A DNA stretch of 64,000 nucleotides from Bilabrum cf. latius (Eukaryota), in the NCBI GenBank assembly GCA_965178125.1, contig OZ237746.1, positions 930,001-994,000 on the forward strand. The letters are read 5' to 3'. Every line of letters starts with the position of its first letter. The first letter of the stretch is position 1. This document shows positions 1 through 9,558 of this stretch, piece after piece. The translations under genes were made by a program, and so were the position numbers. Under the pieces are notes generated by a model. That model saw only the letters and a list, made by a program, of their open reading frames with translations, was not told the DNA's origin and did no database searches.

Positions 1-1
1 T

Positions 2-535
2 AGTGATATTCGTGTTCTCCTCCAAACTCCACCAAATATTAAGGGGTTTCTTCCTACGTCGGTAAACATCGTTCCATATACAGAATTAGGATAGTACAAT
101 AGTATTGATGGATTATTTAGTCGTTGTAATTGTTGTATCATTCTATACCAAGAAGAAATAAACTCTGGTCATTGGGTTTGCTTATTTAAGCGTAATAAAA
201 CAATATACTTCTTTGACAGTTACGGAATTCGTCCTGATAGGCAATAGAGTACGATGAGTGACGCCGTCCGGAAACGTTTTTATGAAGACCCTGAACTAAT
301 ACATTTAATGTATCATTCTCCGTATAAGATTGACTATAACCCATATTAGTTTTAGGCGGATGGAATGGATATAGCAACCTGCGGGAGACATTGTATAGTT
401 CGTCTTTGGAATAGGGGAAAAAACGCTGATTAGTATAAAAAGTGGGTGGATAAGGTTTGTAAGAAACATACATTAAATCCTGATGAATTAGTGTATTTAT
501 TGACGTATCATCTTAATGATATTAAGTCCCCATAA
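2..535 (+). CDS. Virophage/Polinton-type maturation cysteine protease (adenain/Ulp1-like, clan CE), 5'-truncated by the window; open only if TAG is read as sense (Gln)
   Basis: Manual translation of frame 2: SDIRVLL...IVPYTELG*YNSIDGLF...CIILYQEEINSGHWVCLFKRNKTIYFFDSYGIRPD...IDYNPY*F*ADGMDIATCGRHCIVRL...NPDELVYLLT...KSP-TAA. Catalytic H (GHW), D (FDSYG) and C (TCGRHC) are present. In-frame TAG at 92, 245, 347, 353 and 431; no frameshift. Confidence 0.88.
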
Positions 536-683
536 AATGCTGATGCTTCTTGCTGTTAATATGGTGTGATTTATTGTATACTTTATATTTCCCACCACAA
601 GGGCAAAGAATTGTTTGCTTTAAAGTATCTTTATTTTTCTTGTAATATTCTTGATTATATTCCTGTGTATTTCTCACGGGCAT
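522..683 (-). CDS. Small basic protein with a C2H2-like Zn finger (CPCGG...H..SKKH), typical of small ORFs in giant viruses, virophages and Polintons
   Basis: MPVRNTQEYNQEYYKKNKDTLKQTILCPCGGKYKVYNKSHHINSKKHQHFMGT-TAA. ATG at 683 (the ORF track extends to 707). It fills the gap between protease and integrase, and its stop overlaps the protease 3' end. Confidence 0.7.
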   Translation of the reverse strand: MPVRNTQEYNQEYYKKNKDTLKQTILCPCGGKYKVYNKSHHINSKKHQHFMGT

Positions 684-715
684 ATCTCTGTTATATACTA
701 AGAACAAAGTACTTA

Positions 716-1639
716 ATGGAAAAGTATTTTGACGAAGTTCATACTCCTAGAAACCCTGAGCGGTCATATAGAAAAGTTTAGGCCTATGGAAATGCGGATA
801 TTTACTCTGCAGATTTAATTGACCTCTCAAGATTTGCTGAGTATAATGATAATTATAAATGGATACTCTCATTAATTGATATTATTTCAAGAAAAGGGAT
901 TGCTATACCACTCAAGAATAAACTAGCGACTACTGTGTTAAAAGGCTACAAATAGATTGTGGAAGGCTTGGGAAAACAACCTAATAAACTGTGGACTGAC
1001 TAGGGAAAAGAGTTCTATAATAAAACGTTTAAGAAATATCTTTCCAAACACAATACTCACCTGTACTCAACTTTTTCCGGAAAAAAGGCGGTTGTTGTGG
1101 AACGCTTCAATAGAACTATTTTAACCAAATTATTTAAGTCGATGGCTAAGAATAAGACACGACGATGGATTGATTTATTAACTGATGTTATTGTTTCCTA
1201 TAATAATACTGAACATAGCACCATTAAGATGACACCTAACGAATTGTGGGAAAAGGAAAAAGATTTCCAACCAAGTATTAAACGTCACTAGAAAAGCCCT
1301 ATTAAATTCAAGAAGGGCGATATCGTACGAGTAATGTACCCTAAGAAAACATTTGATAAAGGGTATTTACCTAATTGGAGTTGGGACGTCTTCAAAATTA
1401 ATAAGGTATTCTTGACAAATCCAACAACCTATACTTTGACGAATGGGGAAAAGAAGAAATTAGAGGGGAAATACTATGATTGGCAATTAAAGAAAACCGT
1501 GTAGCCTTTTGGGGTCTATAACATCGAAAGAGTTGTAGATACTGAAATGAAAGATGGAATTGAGTATAGTTTTGTGAAATGGGTGGGGTATGATGCTTCG
1601 CATAACAGTTGGATACCGACCAATCAACTAATAGATTGA
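716..1639 (+). CDS. Retroviral-like (rve, DDE) integrase with C-terminal chromodomain, Polinton/Mavirus type, 307 aa if TAG=Gln
   Basis: Manual translation from ATG 716 to TGA 1637-1639: ...YSADLIDL...ILSLIDIISRKG..IPLKNK...PNKLWTD*GKEFYNK...KAVVVERFNRTI...YNNTEHSTIKMTP...FKKGDIVRV...FDKGYLPNWS...YNIERVVD...SFVKWVGYDASHNSWIP. The D-D-E triad is intact. In-frame TAG at 779, 953, 1001, 1289 and 1502; no frameshifts and no internal TAA or TGA. Confidence 0.92.
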
Positions 1640-1707
1640 TTTTTATGGTGTCATCATGGGAATTACAACATTAAATTTTAATTGGAAAATTTTATTTATT
1701 CTTTCTA
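1640..1707. repeat. First, interrupted copy of the AT-rich ~166-bp subterminal repeat
   Basis: TTTTTATGGTGTCATCATGGGAATTACAACATTAAATTTTAATTGGAAAATTTTATTTATTCTTTC matches ~8450-8514 and ~8616-8680. In those copies it continues ...AGTCTC, which here resumes at 8185. Confidence 0.85.
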
Positions 1708-1904
1708 ATAATGCTAACGCCGAATGGGGTTCGGGGTTGATGTGGCGATGCGTTCGAGACTCGAACACAGGCTCCGGTCTACCAACGCGAGGTTGCAACC
1801 GCCAGTGCGACCAGCAGCTTGCGAGGCATTCCCTCGTCTCCTTCCTTAGGGAAGGGGGCGGGGCAGCGCGGCAGTGGCCGTTCCGGCTCATGCCGTTGTT
1901 TTGT
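1708..1904 (+). repeat. Split direct repeat A1
   Basis: ATAATGCTAACGCC...CCGTTGTTTTGT, identical by eye to 7823-8019. Confidence 0.95.
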
Positions 1905-2433
1905 TTAGTATTTATGTTCGGTTTGGTGCTCACACGGGTAGTGCTTAACGCCGTGTCAACTATCGCGCGTGTCCATGTGGGTCCGTTCGGCCTACATCGT
2001 GCATCCATCCTCGGCCTACTTGGCGCTCCAGTGGATCCGAACCAATATTTACTTCGATGTGATCCATCTTTCTCGGCACATCGATGGGACTTCGGTCCGT
2101 TGGGCTCGGCTGCTGCTTGCGCCACGGTCTCCCGGGTGTGTGCTCGCCGATGGCATTTTCGCGCGATCTCTGCGTCCCTCCCTTTCGTACTTGTTCCTAC
2201 GCACGGCCATGCATGTAGAAACATATTCAAATGGTTCGATCTTACGGTTTTCCGACGACCCAGCCTTTCCGTTGGCGAGGCGCGCTCCGCTTTTCCGGTC
2301 GCACCTCGAAAGCAACCACTTTCGGCCAGATCAGCCATCGTACCAGGATACAGCACGATTTGCACCTATCGAGTGACTGATCATTTGAATTGTGCAGGGT
2401 GGGCACGTAGTCAGCTTGGACTCCATCGTCCTC

Positions 2434-5400
2434 TGGCTGCCGACGACAGCAGGCTCGGTGAGCCTTCGTCATCGTCCAGACAACCCTGCAGCTCGCACCA
2501 GGCGTGCGTGCAGGAGGTCGAAGCGAGCAGCGCGGTGTGGCGCAGCTCGTAGACGGAGGCCGGCCTGGAGCCTGGTCGGTTGACGCAGCATCAGTGGTGG
2601 GCTGGTGCTGTGTCTTGCGCGGGTGCCGGAGCTTGGCCACGGTGGCCTGCTGCTCCCTGCGCCCCACGCGCAGTTCCTCCCGCTCCGGCGGATGAGTCAG
2701 CAGTGGCACGTTGCCACCGGCTGACGACGACAGCAGGCTCGGTGAGCCTTCGTCATCGTCCAGAAAACCCTGCAGCTCGCACCAGGCGTGCGTGCAGGAG
2801 GTCGAAGCGAGCAGCGCGGTGTGGCGCAGCTCGTAGACGGAGGCCGGCCTGGAGCCTGGTCGGTTGACGCAGCATCAGTGGTGGGCTGGTGCTGTGTCTT
2901 TGCGCGGGTGCCGGAGCTTGGCCACGATGGCCTGCTGCTCCCTGCGCCCCACGCGCAGTTCCTCCCGCTCCGGCGGATGAGTCAGCAGTGGCACGTTGCC
3001 ACCGGCTGACGACGACAGCAGGCTCGGTGAGCCTTCGTCATCGTCCAGAAAACCCTGCAGCTCGCACCAGGCGTGCGTGCAGGAGGTCGAAGCGAGCAGC
3101 GCGGTGTGGCGCAGCTCGTAGACGGAGGCCGGCCTGGAGCCTGGTCGGTTGCCGCAGCATCAGTGGTGGGCTGGTGCTGTGTCTTGCGCGGGTGCCGGAG
3201 CCTGGCCACGATGGCCTGCTGCTCCCTGCGCCCACGCGCAGTTCCTCCCGCTCCGGCGGATGAGTCAGCAGTGGCACGTTGCCACCGGCTGACGACGACA
3301 GCAGGCTCGGTGAGCCTTCGTCATCGTCCAGAAAACCCTGCAGCTCGCACCAGGCGTGCGTGCAGGAGGTCGAAGCGAGCAGCGCGGTGTGGCGCAGCTC
3401 GTAGACGGAGGCCGGCCTGGAGCCTGGTCGGTTGACGCAGCATCAGTGGTGGGCTGGTGCTGTGTCTTGCGCGGGTGCCGGAGCTTGGCCACGATGGCCT
3501 GCTGCTCCCTGTGCCCCACGCGCAGTTCCTCCCGCTCCGGCGGATGAGTCAGCAGTGGCGCGTTGCCACCGGCTGACGACGACAGCAGGCTCGGTGAGCC
3601 TTCGTCATCGTCCAGAAAACCCTGCAGCTCGCACCAGGCGTGCGTGCAGGAGGTCGAAGCGAGCAGCGCGGTGTGGCGCAGCTCGTAGACGGAGGCCGGC
3701 CTGGAGCCTGGTCGGTTGCCGCAGCATCAGTGGTGGGCTGGTGCTGTGTCTTGCGCGGGTGCCGGAGCTGGGCCACGATGGCCTGCTGCTCCCTGCGCCC
3801 CACGCGCAGTTCCTCCCGCTCCGGCGGATGAGTCAGCAGTGGCACGTTGCCACCGGCTGACGACGACAGCAGGCTCGATGAGCCTTCGTCATCGTCCAGA
3901 AAACCCTGCAGCTCGCACCAGGCGTGCGTGCAGGAGGTCGAAGCGAGCAGCGCGGTGTGGCGCAGCTCGTAGACGGAGGCCGGCCTGGAGCCTGGTCGGT
4001 TGACGCAGCATCAGTGGTGGGCTGGTGCTGTGCCTTGCGCGGGTGCCGGAGCCTCGCCACGATGGCCTGCTGCTCCCTGCGCCCCACGCGCAGTTCCTCC
4101 CGCTCCGGCGGATGAGTCAGCAGTGGCACGTTGCCACCGGCTGACGACGACAGCAGGCTCGATGAGCCTTCGTCATCGTCCAGAAAACCCTGCAGCTCGC
4201 ACCAGGCGTGCGTGCAGGAGGTCGAAGCGAGCAGCGCGGTGTGGCGCAGCTCGTAGACGGAGGCCGGCCTGGAGCCTGGTCGGTTGACGCAGCATCAGTG
4301 GTGGGCTGGTGTTGTGTCTTGCGTGGGTGCCGGAGCCTGGCCACGGTGGCCTGCTGCTCCCTGCGCCCCACGCGCAGTTCCTCCCGCTCCGGCGGATGAG
4401 TCAGCAGTGGCACGTTGCCACCGGCTGACGACGACAGCAGGCTCGGTGAGCCTTCGTCATCGTCCAGAAAACCCTGCAGCTCGCACCAGGCGTGCGTGCA
4501 GGAGGTCGAAGCGAGCAGCGCGGTGTGGCGCAGCTCGTAGACGGAGGCCGGCCTGGAGCCTGGTCGGTTGACGCAGCATCAGTGGTGGGCTGGTGCTGTG
4601 TCTTTGCGCGGGTGCCGGAGCTTGGCCACGATGGCCTGCTGCTCCCTGCGCCCCACGCGCAGTTCCTCCCGCTCCGGCGGATGAGTCAGCAGTGGCACGT
4701 TGCCACCGGCTGACGACGACAGCAGGCTCGGTGAGCCTTCGTCATCGTCCAGAAAACCCTGCAGCTCGCACCAGGCGTGCGTGCAGGAGGTCGAAGCGAG
4801 CAGCGCGGTGTGGCGCAGCTCGTAGACGGAGGCCGGCCTGGAGCCTGGTCGGTTGACGCAGCATCAGTGGTGGGCTGGTGCTGTGTCTTGCGCGGGTGCC
4901 GGAGCCTGGCCACGATGGCCTGCTGCTCCCTGCGCCCCACGCGCAGTTCCTCCCGCTCCGGCGGATGAGTCAGCAGTGGCACGTTGCCACCGGCTGACGA
5001 CGACAGCAGGCTCGGTGAGCCTTCGTCATCGTCCAGAAAACCCTGCAGCTCGCACCAGGCGTGCGTGCAGGAGGTTGAAGCGAGCAGCGCGGTGTGGCGC
5101 AGCTCGTAGACGGAGGCCGGCCTGGAGCCTGGTCGGTTGCCGCAGCATCAGTGGTGGGCTGGTGCTGCGTCTTTGCGCGGGTGCCGGAGCTTGGCCACGA
5201 TGGCCTGCTGCTCCCTGCGCCCCACGCGCAGTTCCTCCCGCTCCGGCGGATGAGTCAGCAGTGGCACGTTGCCACCGACTGACGACGACAGCAGGCTCGG
5301 TGAGCCTTCGTCATCGTCCAGAAAACCCTGCAGCTCGCACCAGGCGTGCGTGCAGGAGGTCGAAGCGAGCAGCGCGGTGTGGCGCAGCTCGTAGACGGAG

Positions 5401-7261
5401 GCCGGCCTGGAGCCTGGTCGGTTGACGCAGCATCAGTGGTGGGCTGGTGCTGTGTCTTGCGCGGGTGCCGGAGCCTGGCCACGGTGGCCTGCTGCTCCCT
5501 GCGCCCCACGCGCAGTTCTCCCGCTCCGGCGGATGAGTCAGCAGTGGCACGTTGCCACCGGCTGACGACGACAGCAGGCTCGGTGAGCCTTCGTCATCGT
5601 CCAGAAAACCCTGCAGCTCGCACCAGGCGTGCGTGCAGGAGGTCGAAGCGAGCAGCGCGGTGTGGCGCAGCTCGTAGACGGAGGCCGGCCTGGAGCCTGG
5701 TCGGTTGACGCAGCATCAGTGGTGGGCTGGTGCTGTGTCTTTGCGCGGGTGCCGGAGCTTGGCCACGATGGCCTGCTGCTGCCTGCGCCCCACGCGCAGT
5801 TCTCCCGCTCCGGCGAATGAGTCAGCAGTGGCACGTTGCCACCGACTGACGACGACAGCAGGCTCGGTGAGCCTTCGTCATCGTCCAGAAAACCCTGCAG
5901 CTCGCACCAGGCGTGCGTGCAGGAGGTCGAAGCGAGCAGCGCGGTGTGGCGCAGCTCGTAGACGGAGGCCGGCCTGGAGCCTGGTCGGTTGCCGCAGCAT
6001 CAGTGGTGGGCTGGTGCTGTGTCTTGCGCGGGTGCCGGAGCCTGGCCACGATGGCCTGCTGCTCCCTGCGCCCCACGCGCAGTTCTCCCGCTCCGGCGGA
6101 TGAGTCAGCAGGGGCACGTTGCCACCGACTGACGACGACAGCAGGCTCGGTGAGCCTTCGTCATCGTCCAGAAAACCCTGCAGCTCGCACCAGGCGTGCG
6201 TGCAGGAGGTCGAAGCGAGCAGCGCGGTGTGGCGCAGCTCGTAGACGGAGGCCGGCCTGGAGCCTGGTCGGTTGACGCAGCATCAGTGGTGGGCTGGTGC
6301 TGTGTCTTTGCGCGGGTGCCGGAGCTTGGCCACGATGGCCTGCTGCTCCCTGCGCCCCACGCGCAGTTCCTCCCGCTCCGGCGGATGAGTCAGCAGTGGC
6401 ACGTTGCCACCGGCTGACGACGACAGCAGGCTCGGTGAGCCTTCGTCATCGTCCAGAAAACCCTGCAGCTCGCACCAGGCGTGCGTGCAGGAGGTTGAAG
6501 CGAGCAGCGCGGTGTGGCGCAGCTCGTAGACGGAGGCCGGCCTGGAGCCTGGTCGGTTGACGCAGCATCAGTGGTGGGCTGGTGCTGTGTCTTTGCGCGG
6601 GTGCCGGAGCTTGGCCACGATGGCCTGCTGCTCCCTGCGCCCCACGCGCAGTTCCTCCCGCTCCGGCGGATGAGTCAGCAGTGGCACGTTGCCACCGGCT
6701 GACGACGACAGCAGGCTCGGTGAGCCTTCGTCATCGTCCAGAAAACCCTGCAGCTCGCACCAGGCGTGCGTGCAGGAGGTCGAAGCGAGCAGCGCGGTGT
6801 GGCGCAGCTCGTAGACGGAGGCCGGCCTGGAGCCTGGTCGGTTGCCGCAGCATCAGTGGTGGGCTGGTGCTGTGTCTTGCGCGGGTGCCGGAGCTTGGCC
6901 ACGGTGGCCTGCTGCTCCCTGCGCCCCACGCGCAGTTCCTCCCGCTCCGGCGGATGAGTCAGCAGTGGCACGTTGCCACCGGCTGACGACGACAGCAGGC
7001 TCGGTGAGCCTTCGTCATCGTCCAGAAAACCCTGCAGCTCGCACCAGGCGTGCATGCAGGAGGTCGAAGCGAGCAGCGCGGTGTGGCGCAGCTCGTAGAC
7101 GGAGGCCGGCCTGGAGCCTGGTCGGTTGACGCAGCATCAGTGGTGGGCTGGTGCTGTGTCTTTGCGCGGGTGCCGGAGCCTGGCCACGATGGCCTGCTGC
7201 TCCCTGCGCCCACGCGCAGTTCTCCCGCTCCGGCGGATGAGTCAGCAGTGGCACGTTGCCA
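2434..7261 (+). repeat. GC-rich tandem array, 17 copies of a 283-285 bp unit
   Basis: The same motif recurs at 2504, 2788, 3073, 3356, 3640, 3924, 4208, 4492, 4777, 5061, 5346, 5629, 5913, 6196, 6481, 6766 and 7050. Copies differ by a few substitutions and 1-nt indels. Confidence 0.97.
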
Positions 7262-7677
7262 TTGACTGACGCCCCCTCGTCAGGCTTGCTCCCTACATCC
7301 AGTAGTTTGGAGCACCCTGATTTCCCGCTTTGCGGATGAGTCACTGCGGGTATATTCTCCGGCAGCTGACGATCTCTTGGGCCACATGGTTCCTCGCCCA
7401 GGAACAGGCATGTAGACACAGTGGTAGCCACTCCACTGGCCTACTTGCAGGTTCCCAATCGACTGGTTCTTCCACGGATGTCGCCGTACGTACCTCCTTT
7501 GGCACAACCCGACTGCATAGTCGATGAGTTGTGTCAACGGACTCAACGCCGGCGCGGTTTCGTCCCTGACCTACGGTCGTCGACTCGACTACCGCTATCA
7601 TCGACTGTTTCCACACGTCCTACAGATGGTCCCGACAACCAGTCAACTTCAATGATCAAGGCATGGCGATGTAAGAC

Positions 7678-8184
7678 TTGGCTGATAGTGGAGCGGACGC
7701 GCAACCGACGGTTCTGGTGCTTTCCAACCGACGTCGGCGCGCGGTCTGCTCAGATTGGCCATGCTTTGCCCATGTCTTGATTGAACTGGAGACGAAGTGT
7801 GTCGAGTAAGCATCGTTGCATCATAATGCTAACGCCGAATGGGGTTCGGGGTTGATGTGGCGATGCGTTCGAGACTCGAACACAGGCTCCGGTCTACCAA
7901 CGCGAGGTTGCAACCGCCAGTGCGACCAGCAGCTTGCGAGGCATTCCCTCGTCTCCTTCCTTAGGGAAGGGGGCGGGGCAGCGCGGCAGTGGCCGTTCCG
8001 GCTCATGCCGTTGTTTTGTCCCACCCTCCTCTCCCTGGTTTGGCTGATAGTGGAGCGGACGCGCAACCGACGGTTCTGGTGCTTTCCAACCGACGTCGGC
8101 GCGCGGTCTGCTCAGATTGGCCATGCTTTGCCCATGTCTTGATTGAACTGGAGACGAAGTGTGTCGAGTAAGCATCGTTGCATC
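7678..8184 (+). repeat. Split direct repeats B1 (7678-7822), A2 (7823-8019) and B2 (8040-8184)
   Basis: TTGGCTGATAGTGG...CATCGTTGCATC occurs twice, 362 bp apart, flanking the second copy of A. Confidence 0.95.
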
Positions 8185-8720
8185 AGTCTCTTATAATTGA
8201 CCTGTCAAATCTCTCAATTTTTGGGGGACTTTTCCAAAGGAACTTAAAATACAATTACTAATTGATTTTTCATTTCCTTTTTTAATTTTTATGGTATCAT
8301 CATTGGAATTACAACATTTAATTTTAATTGGGAACTTAATTTTAATATTTCTTTGTATCCTATATTGTCCAAAATTTTCAATCAATTTTTGTGTTTTTAA
8401 TTGGGGAGTTAGAAAACAATTATAATTTGTTTTTTTATTTTCCTTTTAATTTTTATGGTGTTATCATAGGAGTTACAACATATATTTTAATTGGAAAATT
8501 TTATTTATTCTTTCATAGTCTCTTATAATTGACCTGTCAAATCTCTCAATTTTTGGGGGACTTTTCCAAAGGGACTTAAAATACAATTACTAATTAATTT
8601 TTATTTTCCTTTTAATTTTTATGGTATCATCATAGGAATTACAACATATATTTTTAATAGGAAAATTTATTTATTCTTTCATAGTCTCCTTTATTCGACC
8701 GACCAAATCTCTCAATTTTA
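8185..8720. repeat. AT-rich degenerate tandem repeat (~166 bp, about 3 copies), probably part of the viral element's terminal repeat region
   Basis: AGTCTCTTATAATTGACCTGTCAAATCTCTCAATTTT at 8185 and 8517, a variant at 8682, and a more degenerate intervening copy. Confidence 0.85.
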
Positions 8721-9302
8721 ATCTTTGAAAAAGATATCAAAAGAGCGGAGGGCAAAGCCCGAGCATCTTGGGGACTTTTCCAATCCACCGAGAAAACGAA
8801 TACACACCCTTGTTAATCCTTAAAAATTGATTGGAAAATATCAGGAAGGCCTTGTAAGCCCTACTAAGGATTTCCAGCGGATTTGCCCTTATCTGGGAAA
8901 AGTAGGGGAAATCGTTGGAAAAGTTTGGAAAACCCCCTGTTTATCCAACTAAGGGTTTTGCGATACAACGCCGATGACCATGGATTTTGAGGAATTTTTG
9001 GAGTGGATTTGAGCCGTTCAGCCCTACCCCTTTTTCGGGTTCGTGGGAAATCGTCCAGTAAAACCCTTTAAAAGCGTGAACCTGCTACCTCAAAACTCAT
9101 ATGCTGGGAGAAAGTGTGAAAAAGTTAGATATATTCATGAAAATGACATTCTATGAAAAATTGAACGGAGAAGTCCAGTATTTGTAGGGGGCATCGGGAA
9201 TTCTTGGGAATTCTTAAAAATTGATTTGAAAATTTTAGATATATTCACGGAAAACCAAAACCTAAAGAAATATTGAAGAAATGTCCAGTATTAGCTGGGG
9301 GA

Positions 9303-9362
9303 AAAGTGATATTGTGTAGCTCAATCTTTGATTGAGGTACACAATTCACTTTATATACTACT
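9303..9362. other. Subterminal hairpin and putative right terminus (...ATACTACT) of the Polinton/virophage-like element
   Basis: AAAGTGA-T-ATTGTGTA-G-CTCAATC-ttt-GATTGAG-G-TACACAAT-TCACTTT inverted repeat at 9303-9352, then ATATACTACT, then GC-rich sequence. Confidence 0.7.
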
Positions 9363-9558
9363 GGGGTATTCTGCGACGCAAGGGCTGTAGAGGCTCCCTG
9401 CCAGGTGCAGGCAGGGCAACAACTGAGCGATCCTCACCCGCTTCTGCGTTGTACACGTTTCAGGCCTTTGGTCGGGGTACACAGCCACCGTGCGGTGGCC
9501 GTCACATTGTTTGCTGAAGCTGCTGCCTTGGCCTGCAGCCGCAATAGCCACACGCTAG

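Follow-up and report, generated by a model that had tools for sequence, protein, structure and literature searches.

TAG-recoded genes at the probable end of an endogenous virophage beside the ribosomal DNA of Bilabrum cf. latius

The window analysed here is a stretch of 64,000 nucleotides (nt) from Bilabrum cf. latius (contig OZ237746.1 of assembly GCA_965178125.1, positions 930,001 to 994,000), whose first 9.4 kb are a mosaic of AT-rich and GC-rich blocks (34% GC in 1-1707, 66% in 1708-8185, 32% in 8186-9362 and 55% in 9363-10703) lying next to an array of ribosomal RNA genes (rDNA). The AT-rich part contains no long open reading frame (ORF) in the standard code, and three ORFs (177, 53 and 307 codons) appear in it when TAG is read as sense: a protease gene, a small zinc-finger ORF on the opposite strand and an integrase gene. 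Behind them lie non-coding repeats, which are interrupted by the GC-rich block (Table 1). Virophages are small double-stranded DNA viruses that parasitise giant viruses and are able to integrate into their protist hosts, and the AT-rich blocks are interpreted below as probably the end of such an integrated virus.

An earlier reading of this DNA, made from the sequence only (the sequence-only reading), had proposed a compact cassette of a protease, an antisense zinc finger and a chromodomain integrase, invisible to standard-code annotation, and every concrete detail of it was found in its place. Protease and zinc finger converge, with a 14-nt overlap that includes both of their stop codons (TAA at 533-535 and, on the minus strand, 522-524); 32 nt separate the start of the zinc finger (683) from that of the integrase (716), and the two long frames are open only with TAG as sense. 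The defined end that had been placed about 1.3 kb from the first homology to rDNA spacer corresponds to the change in composition at about 9362, 1.34 kb ahead of that homology, which begins at 10704 (96.9% over 1305 nt), and the AT-rich block is indeed joined to GC-rich host-like DNA on the same contig. The description of the locus as AT-rich DNA followed by non-coding repeats proved partly right, given that the AT-rich genes and repeats are present, whereas 1708-8185 is a separate insertion of 66% GC.

Table 1. Features at the left end of the window (positions are those of the window; aa, amino acids; X and Y denote the direct repeats of the insert).
Feature	Positions	Strand	Remarks
Virophage-type cysteine protease gene	2-535	+	5'-cut by window edge; TAA stop; homologues and fold match
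Zinc-finger ORF, 53 aa	683-522	-	Cys-x-Cys ... His-x4-His; no in-frame TAG; TAA stop
Integrase, 307 aa: rve (DDE) core, SH3-like middle, C-terminal chromodomain	716-1639	+	TGA stop; Pfam
Beginning of the terminal non-coding repeats, with copy 1 of a 71-nt segment	1636-1707	.	cut by insertion
GC-rich (66%) insert, Ngaro/DIRS-like split direct repeats	1708-8185	+	no ORF with known domain
X1 (in insert)	1708-1904		197 nt; 100% identical to X2
Unique part (in insert)	1905-2434
Tandem array, 284 bp x 17 (in insert)	2435-7261		98% matches, 68% GC
Unique part (in insert)	7262-7677
Y1 (in insert)	7678-7823		146 nt; 100% identical to Y2
X2 (in insert)	7823-8019		followed by 20-nt spacer
Y2 (in insert)	8040-8185
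166-bp AT-rich tandem repeats, 3.2 copies	8186-8719	.	20-27% GC; terminal non-coding region resumes
Outer terminal non-coding region	8720-9362	.	29-48% GC; 50-nt imperfect palindrome 9303-9352 at its end
Flanking host-like gene or pseudogene	9559-10167	-	TAG at 9559-9561 closes the frame
First, partial rDNA spacer copy with 5S gene (11437-11555)	10704-11998	-	edge of 9545-bp repeat array

The internal stops of the two long frames are TAG in ten of ten cases (P ~1.6e-6 by composition), five of them in the protease (residues 31, 82, 116, 118 and 144) and five in the integrase (residues 22, 80, 96, 192 and 263), and no internal TAA or TGA was observed in either frame, against 10.3 and 17.9 expected from base composition. 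TAG is about as frequent in these frames as an ordinary triplet, and CAG is absent from both genes, in which CAA occurs three and four times and TAG five and five times. In alignments with 27 and 30 homologues, glutamine is enriched 7.8-fold over the ten TAG columns, the next residue being histidine with 1.6-fold. Residue 118 of the protease (TAG), located nine residues ahead of the invariant catalytic cysteine, is glutamine in 31 of 31 homologues, so that a TAG stands at an invariant catalytic glutamine, which indicates that this codon is read as glutamine. One TAG of the integrase follows directly after the second catalytic aspartate, where 14 of 27 homologues have glutamine; column 82 of the protease, in a gapped stretch of the alignment, is leucine in 24 of 31 homologues. 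The protease, zinc-finger and integrase ORFs stop at TAA, TAA and TGA, respectively, with lengths that match those of their homologues. On this basis, the genes of the element read TAG as glutamine and terminate at TAA or TGA.

A second, diverged copy of the element (a contig of sequencing run X5 that matches the protein P0124) differs over bases 1-506 by 13 codon changes, of which 9 are synonymous, and its TAGs are conserved. P0124 itself, from a 12.8-kb ENA contig, is a protein 97% identical to the protease that has glutamine already at the TAG sites. The use of TAG for glutamine is systematic and under purifying selection. An origin of the TAGs by decay (C-to-T or RIP-like mutation of CAG) was considered and rejected, because there is no in-frame TAA or TGA, CAA has been kept, a TAG lies at an invariant glutamine and the changes in the second copy are mostly synonymous. 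Viral relatives contain no in-frame TAG in any of 95 loci (within the alignments to protease, penton, capsid or integrase), and the 64-kb window contains no tRNA gene, including the CUA-anticodon type, according to ARAGORN, and none according to Rfam. The recoding is a new feature of this element, and no recoded virophage is reported in the literature searched on virophages or Polinton-like elements and recoding. In the available text of one study, an ochre-suppressor tRNA in one virophage clade is taken as possibly reflecting that the hosts have reassigned a stop codon (PMC6905037).

The protease frame is open at the window edge and lacks about 6-7 N-terminal codons, judged against P0124. A total of 325 homologues were found, and among the 31 that were aligned His57, Gln118 and Cys127 are invariant and Asp79 is nearly so. 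Pfam returned no protease family, Peptidase_C5 included, for the protein or for these 31 homologues, and a search of its profile against the sequences of the PDB gave nothing significant (best E 0.25). Its AlphaFold model, built on 32 sequences (pLDDT 87.6), has as best viral fold match V9 of the Sputnik virophage (E 5.1e-16, TM 0.83, 33% identity) and as best PDB fold match the adenovirus protease, adenain (1nln, E 6.6e-5), with further enzymes of the CE clan behind it. At least 591 stretches in IMG/VR encode relatives of this protease, of which the best 80 loci were analysed. Their proteases are 34-45% identical to that of the window, a major capsid gene of the Sputnik type occurs in 63 of the 80 loci and a penton gene in 67 (tblastn with the proteins of locus L019), and in 66 of them an ORF of at least 200 aa begins within 150 nt of the protease stop. 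A Pfam scan of six of these loci covered 57 of 88 ORFs (those of L019, L038 and L059 completely, 12 of the 14 in L079, but no ORF of L044 or L089) and detected PF21915 and PF22031, as well as PF21507, in three of the four loci scanned (L019, L059 and L079; not L038). Searches of IMG/VR with single proteins as queries found no close relatives, and the INPHARED phage collection gave no match to protease or integrase (tblastn). Homologues and modelled fold together identify the protein as a virophage-type cysteine protease of the CE clan, probably acting in capsid maturation.

With TAG as glutamine, the zinc-finger frame spans 522-872 on the minus strand, and the 53 aa listed in Table 1 are its short form. 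It gives a weak Pfam match to zf-DBF (E 0.012) and has counterparts, 40-44% identical, in three virophage contigs (L059, L068 and L089; tblastn, E 8e-8 to 8e-7). The integrase matches rve (E 6.2e-9) and Chromo (E 2.9e-5) in Pfam, its D33, D95 and E129 are invariant among 28 sequences, and its profile matches the integrase cores of PFV and other retroviruses, as well as HP1-type chromodomains, in the PDB. Among viral proteins, its model (pLDDT 84.9) comes closest in fold to the integrase of a MELD virus (E 2.1e-21), followed by the rve integrase of mavirus (E 6.0e-19). Animal Maverick-like integrases are among the 311 homologues found, the integrase P0004 is 55% identical to that of the window, and there are 15 relatives in IMG/VR (28-40% identity), which are harboured by Polinton-like contigs. 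A Pfam scan covered 60 of 93 ORFs in the corresponding loci (those of L009, L004 and L005 completely, 20 of the 22 in L010, but no ORF of L013 or L002): the PF21738 (double-jelly-roll) capsid was found in L009 and L004, the A32 ATPase in L004, L005, L009 and, weakly, in L010, pPolB in L004 and L005, and a weak Peptidase_C5 in L010 and L004. Another candidate, L096, the only locus of a JGI metagenome scan with an integrase pair alignment, was discarded as a bacterial PAS/GGDEF false positive. A bacterial promoter and terminator scan of 1-1750 remained at the level of shuffled sequence and is irrelevant to a eukaryotic virus. By domains and model, the protein is an rve plus chromodomain integrase of the type found in mavirus and in Polintons/Mavericks. 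The view of the sequence-only reading that an rve integrase and a maturation protease are Polinton and mavirus gene types agrees with the domains, the homologues and the fold matches.

In addition, one of the proteins retrieved, P0012 (from ENA, on a 224-kb contig and with 215 member sequences), is a 476-aa gene call in which a Polinton-type protease is fused to a chromodomain integrase; it points to what may be a widespread element in some eukaryote, with protease and integrase abutting or fused.

The integrase raises the question of whether the element could be a Polinton/Maverick or a Polinton-like virus, that is, one with a double-jelly-roll capsid and a replication independent of a giant virus. 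Its relatives in IMG/VR lie in Polinton-like contigs, among which the four scanned contain, between them, the PF21738 capsid, pPolB and the A32 ATPase (the integrases of such contigs being 34-38% identical to that of the window), Maverick-like integrases of animals are among its homologues, and the fusion call of P0012 shows that protease and integrase can be adjacent in such elements, as the CE-clan protease and the integrase are here. On the other hand, the protease shares 34-45% identity with those of contigs with a Sputnik-type capsid but just 19% with the part of P0012 that is a Polinton-type protease, its nearest relatives are all located in virophage contigs, and neither this comparison nor Pfam, where Peptidase_C5 did not appear, indicates an adenain-like protease of the Polinton type. 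In addition, its best fold match is a Sputnik protein, the zinc-finger ORF matches virophage contigs, and mavirus itself pairs a virophage morphogenesis module with this type of integrase. The protease sets the window apart from Polintons, whose pPolB and capsid gene have no counterpart in the visible part, and a Polinton-type element is considered improbable.

Downstream of the integrase, the AT-rich DNA breaks off 66 nt past the stop codon, within a segment that recurs in each of the 166-bp units, since the 71 nt at 1636-1707 match 8282-8352, 8446-8516 and 8612-8682 (85%, 91% and 89%; blastn). It restarts at 8186, precisely where the interrupted unit would go on: an intact unit reads ...CTTTC-ATA-GTCTC..., and the interrupted one ...CTTTC-TA-[insert]-GTCTC..., with no target-site duplication seen around the insert. 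A reading of the locus as two separate AT-rich insertions flanking host DNA was rejected, because both AT-rich sides rejoin into one repeat unit. The insert itself has the repeat order X1-[satellite]-Y1X2Y2, i.e., the split direct repeats of Ngaro/DIRS elements (Ngaros are defined by the order A1-[internal]-B1A2B2 in the available text of PMC8547959), and 4.8 kb of its interior are taken up by the 284-bp array. None of its eight ORFs belongs to a Pfam family at E <= 0.1, and no reverse transcriptase, RNase H or tyrosine recombinase was found. Because the interior is a satellite without any ORF of a Pfam family, the insert would be at best a non-autonomous Ngaro/DIRS-like element, a membership suggested by its repeat layout. 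It resembles Ngaros in that layout, in being GC-rich, about 6.5 kb long and multi-copy, in its location in the non-coding terminus of a putative virophage and in the lack of a clear target-site duplication; it differs from them in having no ORF for reverse transcriptase, RNase H or tyrosine recombinase and in its interior with a 17-copy 284-bp satellite.

Contigs of four public sequencing runs were placed on 1-5600 as evidence from reads. In the runs of organisms C and D, the GC-rich X repeat, its neighbouring unique part and the array are present at high depth, but nothing of the AT-rich element, and runs X6 and X7 (run labels, as opposed to the repeat copies X1 and X2), presumably of RNA, contain only the GC-rich repeat. 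In organisms A and B, 523-1598 is present without any difference. Repeat X has several left-hand neighbours, namely the end of Y and at least one other AT-rich context. The occurrence of the GC-rich element in C and D and the varied contexts of X indicate, thus, that it is a multi-copy resident and that the AT-rich element is an addition in some of the genomes. The 284-bp satellite is an abundant repeat family of these genomes.

These data also bear on the possibility that the locus is an assembly chimera or a contaminant, in which AT-rich, TAG-recoded DNA of another organism or of a free virus was misjoined to GC-rich DNA. With 34% GC against 55-68% and with its different code, the AT-rich part contrasts sharply with its flanks, the scaffold includes a gap of 200 N and a duplicated 1.5-kb piece of small-subunit rRNA (SSU) gene in rDNA unit 3, none of the contigs placed bridges the junction 1707/1708 by at least 31 nt, and the 97% identical protease stems from an ENA assembly contig. 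Nevertheless, the limits of the GC-rich block coincide exactly with those of its split direct repeats and the AT-rich DNA resumes in register behind it, which is the signature of an insertion and not of a misjoin. Moreover, a contig of run X2 (1569-1737) enters the X1 repeat by 29 nt without a mismatch, organisms A and B both contain 523-1598 unchanged, and a layout of AT-rich DNA within GC-rich DNA and of a Ngaro within a virophage has been verified with long reads in Cafeteria, according to the available text of PMC8547959. A misassembly or contamination is, accordingly, regarded as very improbable.

The terminal region that resumes at 8186 contains no ORF of at least 45 aa under TAG as glutamine and no tRNA gene (8186-9362), and Rfam gave only chance-level matches in 8100-10750, with no family at E <= 0.1. 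At its outer end, the DNA fold of 9280-9400 reaches -26.1 kcal/mol (z -6.6), and none of 200 shuffles was as good. The palindrome within this segment sits just before GC climbs to about 0.6, and may serve as a terminator, as a site bound by the integrase or as a structure of the terminus. We infer that 1640-1707 and 8186-9362, about 1.24 kb together, would form one arm of a terminal inverted repeat (TIR), a length within the range of 0.2-2.3 kb given for the TIRs of endogenous mavirus-like elements (EMALEs) in the available text of PMC8547959.

Taken together, 1-1707 and 8186-9362 are interpreted, with a probability of roughly 0.7, as belonging to an endogenous virophage of the mavirus/EMALE kind, of which they form the right-hand end, integrated in a eukaryotic chromosome of high GC content. 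The AT-rich DNA forms a low-GC island (0.32-0.34 against 0.55-0.66 in the flanks), of which a variant protease copy exists and several copies are indicated, and an rve plus chromodomain integrase lies near one end of the element, 66 nt from the interrupted terminal repeats. The three ORFs are intact, and protease and integrase have kept their catalytic residues. The integrase would have inserted a linear viral genome beside the rDNA, and its chromodomain may have steered the insertion to the chromatin at the rDNA border, a possibility that concerns a single locus. The genes for morphogenesis and replication would lie upstream of the window and, after integration, the Ngaro/DIRS-like element would have entered the first terminal repeat unit.

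Several observations weigh against this interpretation. The element runs off base 1, and neither 1-1707 nor 8186-9362 contains a gene for a capsid protein, an ATPase, a polymerase or a helicase; the Polinton- or virophage-like provirus proposed by the sequence-only reading stands, therefore, as far as the virophage-type protease and the mavirus/Polinton-type integrase are concerned, whereas its capsid, ATPase, polymerase and left terminus would be beyond the window edge. The copy in the window, possibly still functional according to that reading, carries a 6.5-kb insertion in its terminal repeats. No inverted partner of the terminal repeat exists within 1-12000. The order of the genes (protease, antisense zinc finger, integrase, end) deviates from the order protease-penton-capsid of 66 of the 80 relatives, and the two proteins were not found together, the integrase being missing from all 80 protease loci and the protease from all 15 integrase loci. 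Contig depth in runs X2 and X5 is 10-25 times as high over the protease segment as over the integrase segment, and other copies diverge directly after the protease, at 511 and 522, suggesting that the copy in the window may be a rearranged or deleted derivative. A contig of run X2, which may be the sample from which the window was assembled, reaches 29 nt across the junction 1707/1708, short of the 31 nt required, and no contig of X5 crosses it. Finally, a search of the protein collection with capsid profiles gave no record recognisable as coming from the sibling contig among the 120 matches listed of 1037.

Behind the protease, the other copies (seen over 303-522) continue with unrelated DNA, whose first codon is an ATG that overlaps the stop codon. 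They may have the protease-penton order that is usual in virophages; the 30-nt loose end available behind the protease was compared with the N-termini of pentons, which are too variable for a decision.

The gene order and the excess depth of the protease are also what would be expected of a dead, rearranged fragment, in which a deletion or recombination joined a virophage protease to a module of zinc finger, integrase and terminus, and which, lacking capsid and replication genes upstream, would be immobile by itself and produce no virions. The divergence of the other copies at 511 and 522 is in line with such an origin, as are the different end of the sibling protease P0124, the 6.5-kb insertion in the terminal repeats and the truncated EMALEs with regenerated TIRs that the available text of PMC8547959 reports in Cafeteria. 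This alternative has a real chance, although it is judged less likely: all three ORFs are intact with their catalytic residues, 9 of the 13 codon changes relative to the second copy are synonymous, the integrase is located near the 3' end in mid-GC EMALEs too (PMC8547959, in the text available), and the Ngaro-like insertion leaves all genes untouched.

The interpretation as a virophage end relies, in part, on the comparison with Cafeteria, for which the available text of PMC8547959 describes a genome of 70% GC in C. burkhardae with 138 EMALEs of 30-53% GC. These contain an rve integrase with a CHROMO domain, and one of four EMALEs harbours GC-rich Ngaros of about 6 kb, 4 of 20 of which are inserted in the TIRs. 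As far as the texts available for EMALEs and mavirus show (PMC8547959; PMC10945749), the window has in common with them a low-GC (about 30-38%) provirus in a protist genome of about 70% GC, a virophage-type cysteine protease, a chromodomain rve integrase next to an extended non-coding end, the presence of multiple diverged copies in a genome and the interruption by a GC-rich element of about 6 kb with split direct repeats. Its architecture is nearly identical to that published for the Cafeteria EMALEs. The differences are that the genes of the window need TAG as glutamine and that its locus adjoins rDNA (neither recoding nor rDNA is mentioned in the available parts of PMC8547959 or PMC10945749), that the protease is followed by zinc finger and integrase rather than by penton and capsid, and that the inserted element has no ORFs of known domain. 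Furthermore, the proteins of the window are at most 45% identical to any viral contig found.

Whether the host shares the code of the element depends on the GC-rich flank. About 200 bp past the end of the element lies a frame (9562-10167, minus strand) that has two matches among 1.84 billion protein representatives (phmmer), the best of which, P0378 from a Logan contig, is 53% identical (E 5.3e-33; residues 32-172 of the query against 129-269 of the 269 of the protein). Frame and P0378 share their final four residues (tblastn), and the next codon in the window is TAG. The frame has an internal TGA at 10078-10080, within a poorly aligned stretch, and would be a host-like, lineage-restricted gene or pseudogene between the element and the rDNA. 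Its end at TAG hints that this codon may be a stop in the host, the hint coming from a single, possibly decayed gene with one homologue. On this hint, the code may be the element's own.

It is proposed, tentatively and as rather unlikely, that the code of the provirus differs from that of its host, the latter terminating at TAG and the former using TAG as its main G-ending glutamine codon. In such a case, the proteins of the element would be made only in the presence of a UAG-decoding tRNA, and perhaps of an altered release factor, which could come from the element itself, in its part upstream of the window, or from a giant virus that infects the cell. The recoding would then act as a translational lock that keeps the provirus silent until the helper virus comes, a eukaryotic counterpart of TAG-recoded bacteriophages. 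In the literature extracts available, TAG as glutamine in viruses of standard-code hosts is known from bacteriophages, and the code-15 phages (crAss-like, Lak) resemble the element in that TAG is a frequent glutamine codon, TAA and TGA terminate and the host possibly keeps TAG as a stop. Unlike the window, which would hold a eukaryotic provirus and has no tRNA gene, these phages carry their own suppressor tRNAs. In the nuclear code of Iotanema spirale, as given in the available text of PMC5304391, UAG alone is likewise reassigned to glutamine, with UAA and UGA as stops; this is, however, the cellular code of an anaerobic fornicate, whereas the code of the window is seen in a mobile element only, and nothing links the two genomes.

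Endogenous virophages are candidates for heritable defences of protists against giant viruses and have been well described mainly in Cafeteria. The locus repeats the same three layers, with AT-rich virophage DNA in a GC-rich host and, within the virophage, a GC-rich element with split repeats, and adds to them the use of TAG for glutamine. If the host itself is recoded, its code would be among the rarest nuclear ones, with UAG alone reassigned and UAA still a stop. If, on the other hand, the code of the element differs from that of the host, the questions arise of who supplies the decoding machinery and whether the recoding gates the expression of the provirus. In either case, standard-code pipelines would fragment such genes, and surveys of virophages or Polinton-like viruses would miss them.

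The rDNA beyond the flanking frame, which occupies the remainder of the window, consists of five full 18S-5.8S-28S units with linked 5S genes, all on the minus strand and with a period of 9545 bp (Rfam). A scaffold gap of 200 N (40836-41035) lies within unit 3, and 1.5 kb of the 18S gene are doubled around it (39369-42770): 38000-40835 has the same sequence as unit 2, and from 41036 on the sequence repeats that from 29781 on, which makes unit 3 longer by 1.7 kb. The extra partial SSU matches in Rfam, including those to the 'microsporidia' model, are an artefact of the assembly and represent no second type of rRNA. At its edge next to the element, the array starts with a partial copy (10704-11998) that is 96.9% identical to the spacer of the five full units, i.e., 3% diverged, and that has its own 5S gene, so that there are six 5S genes for five full units.

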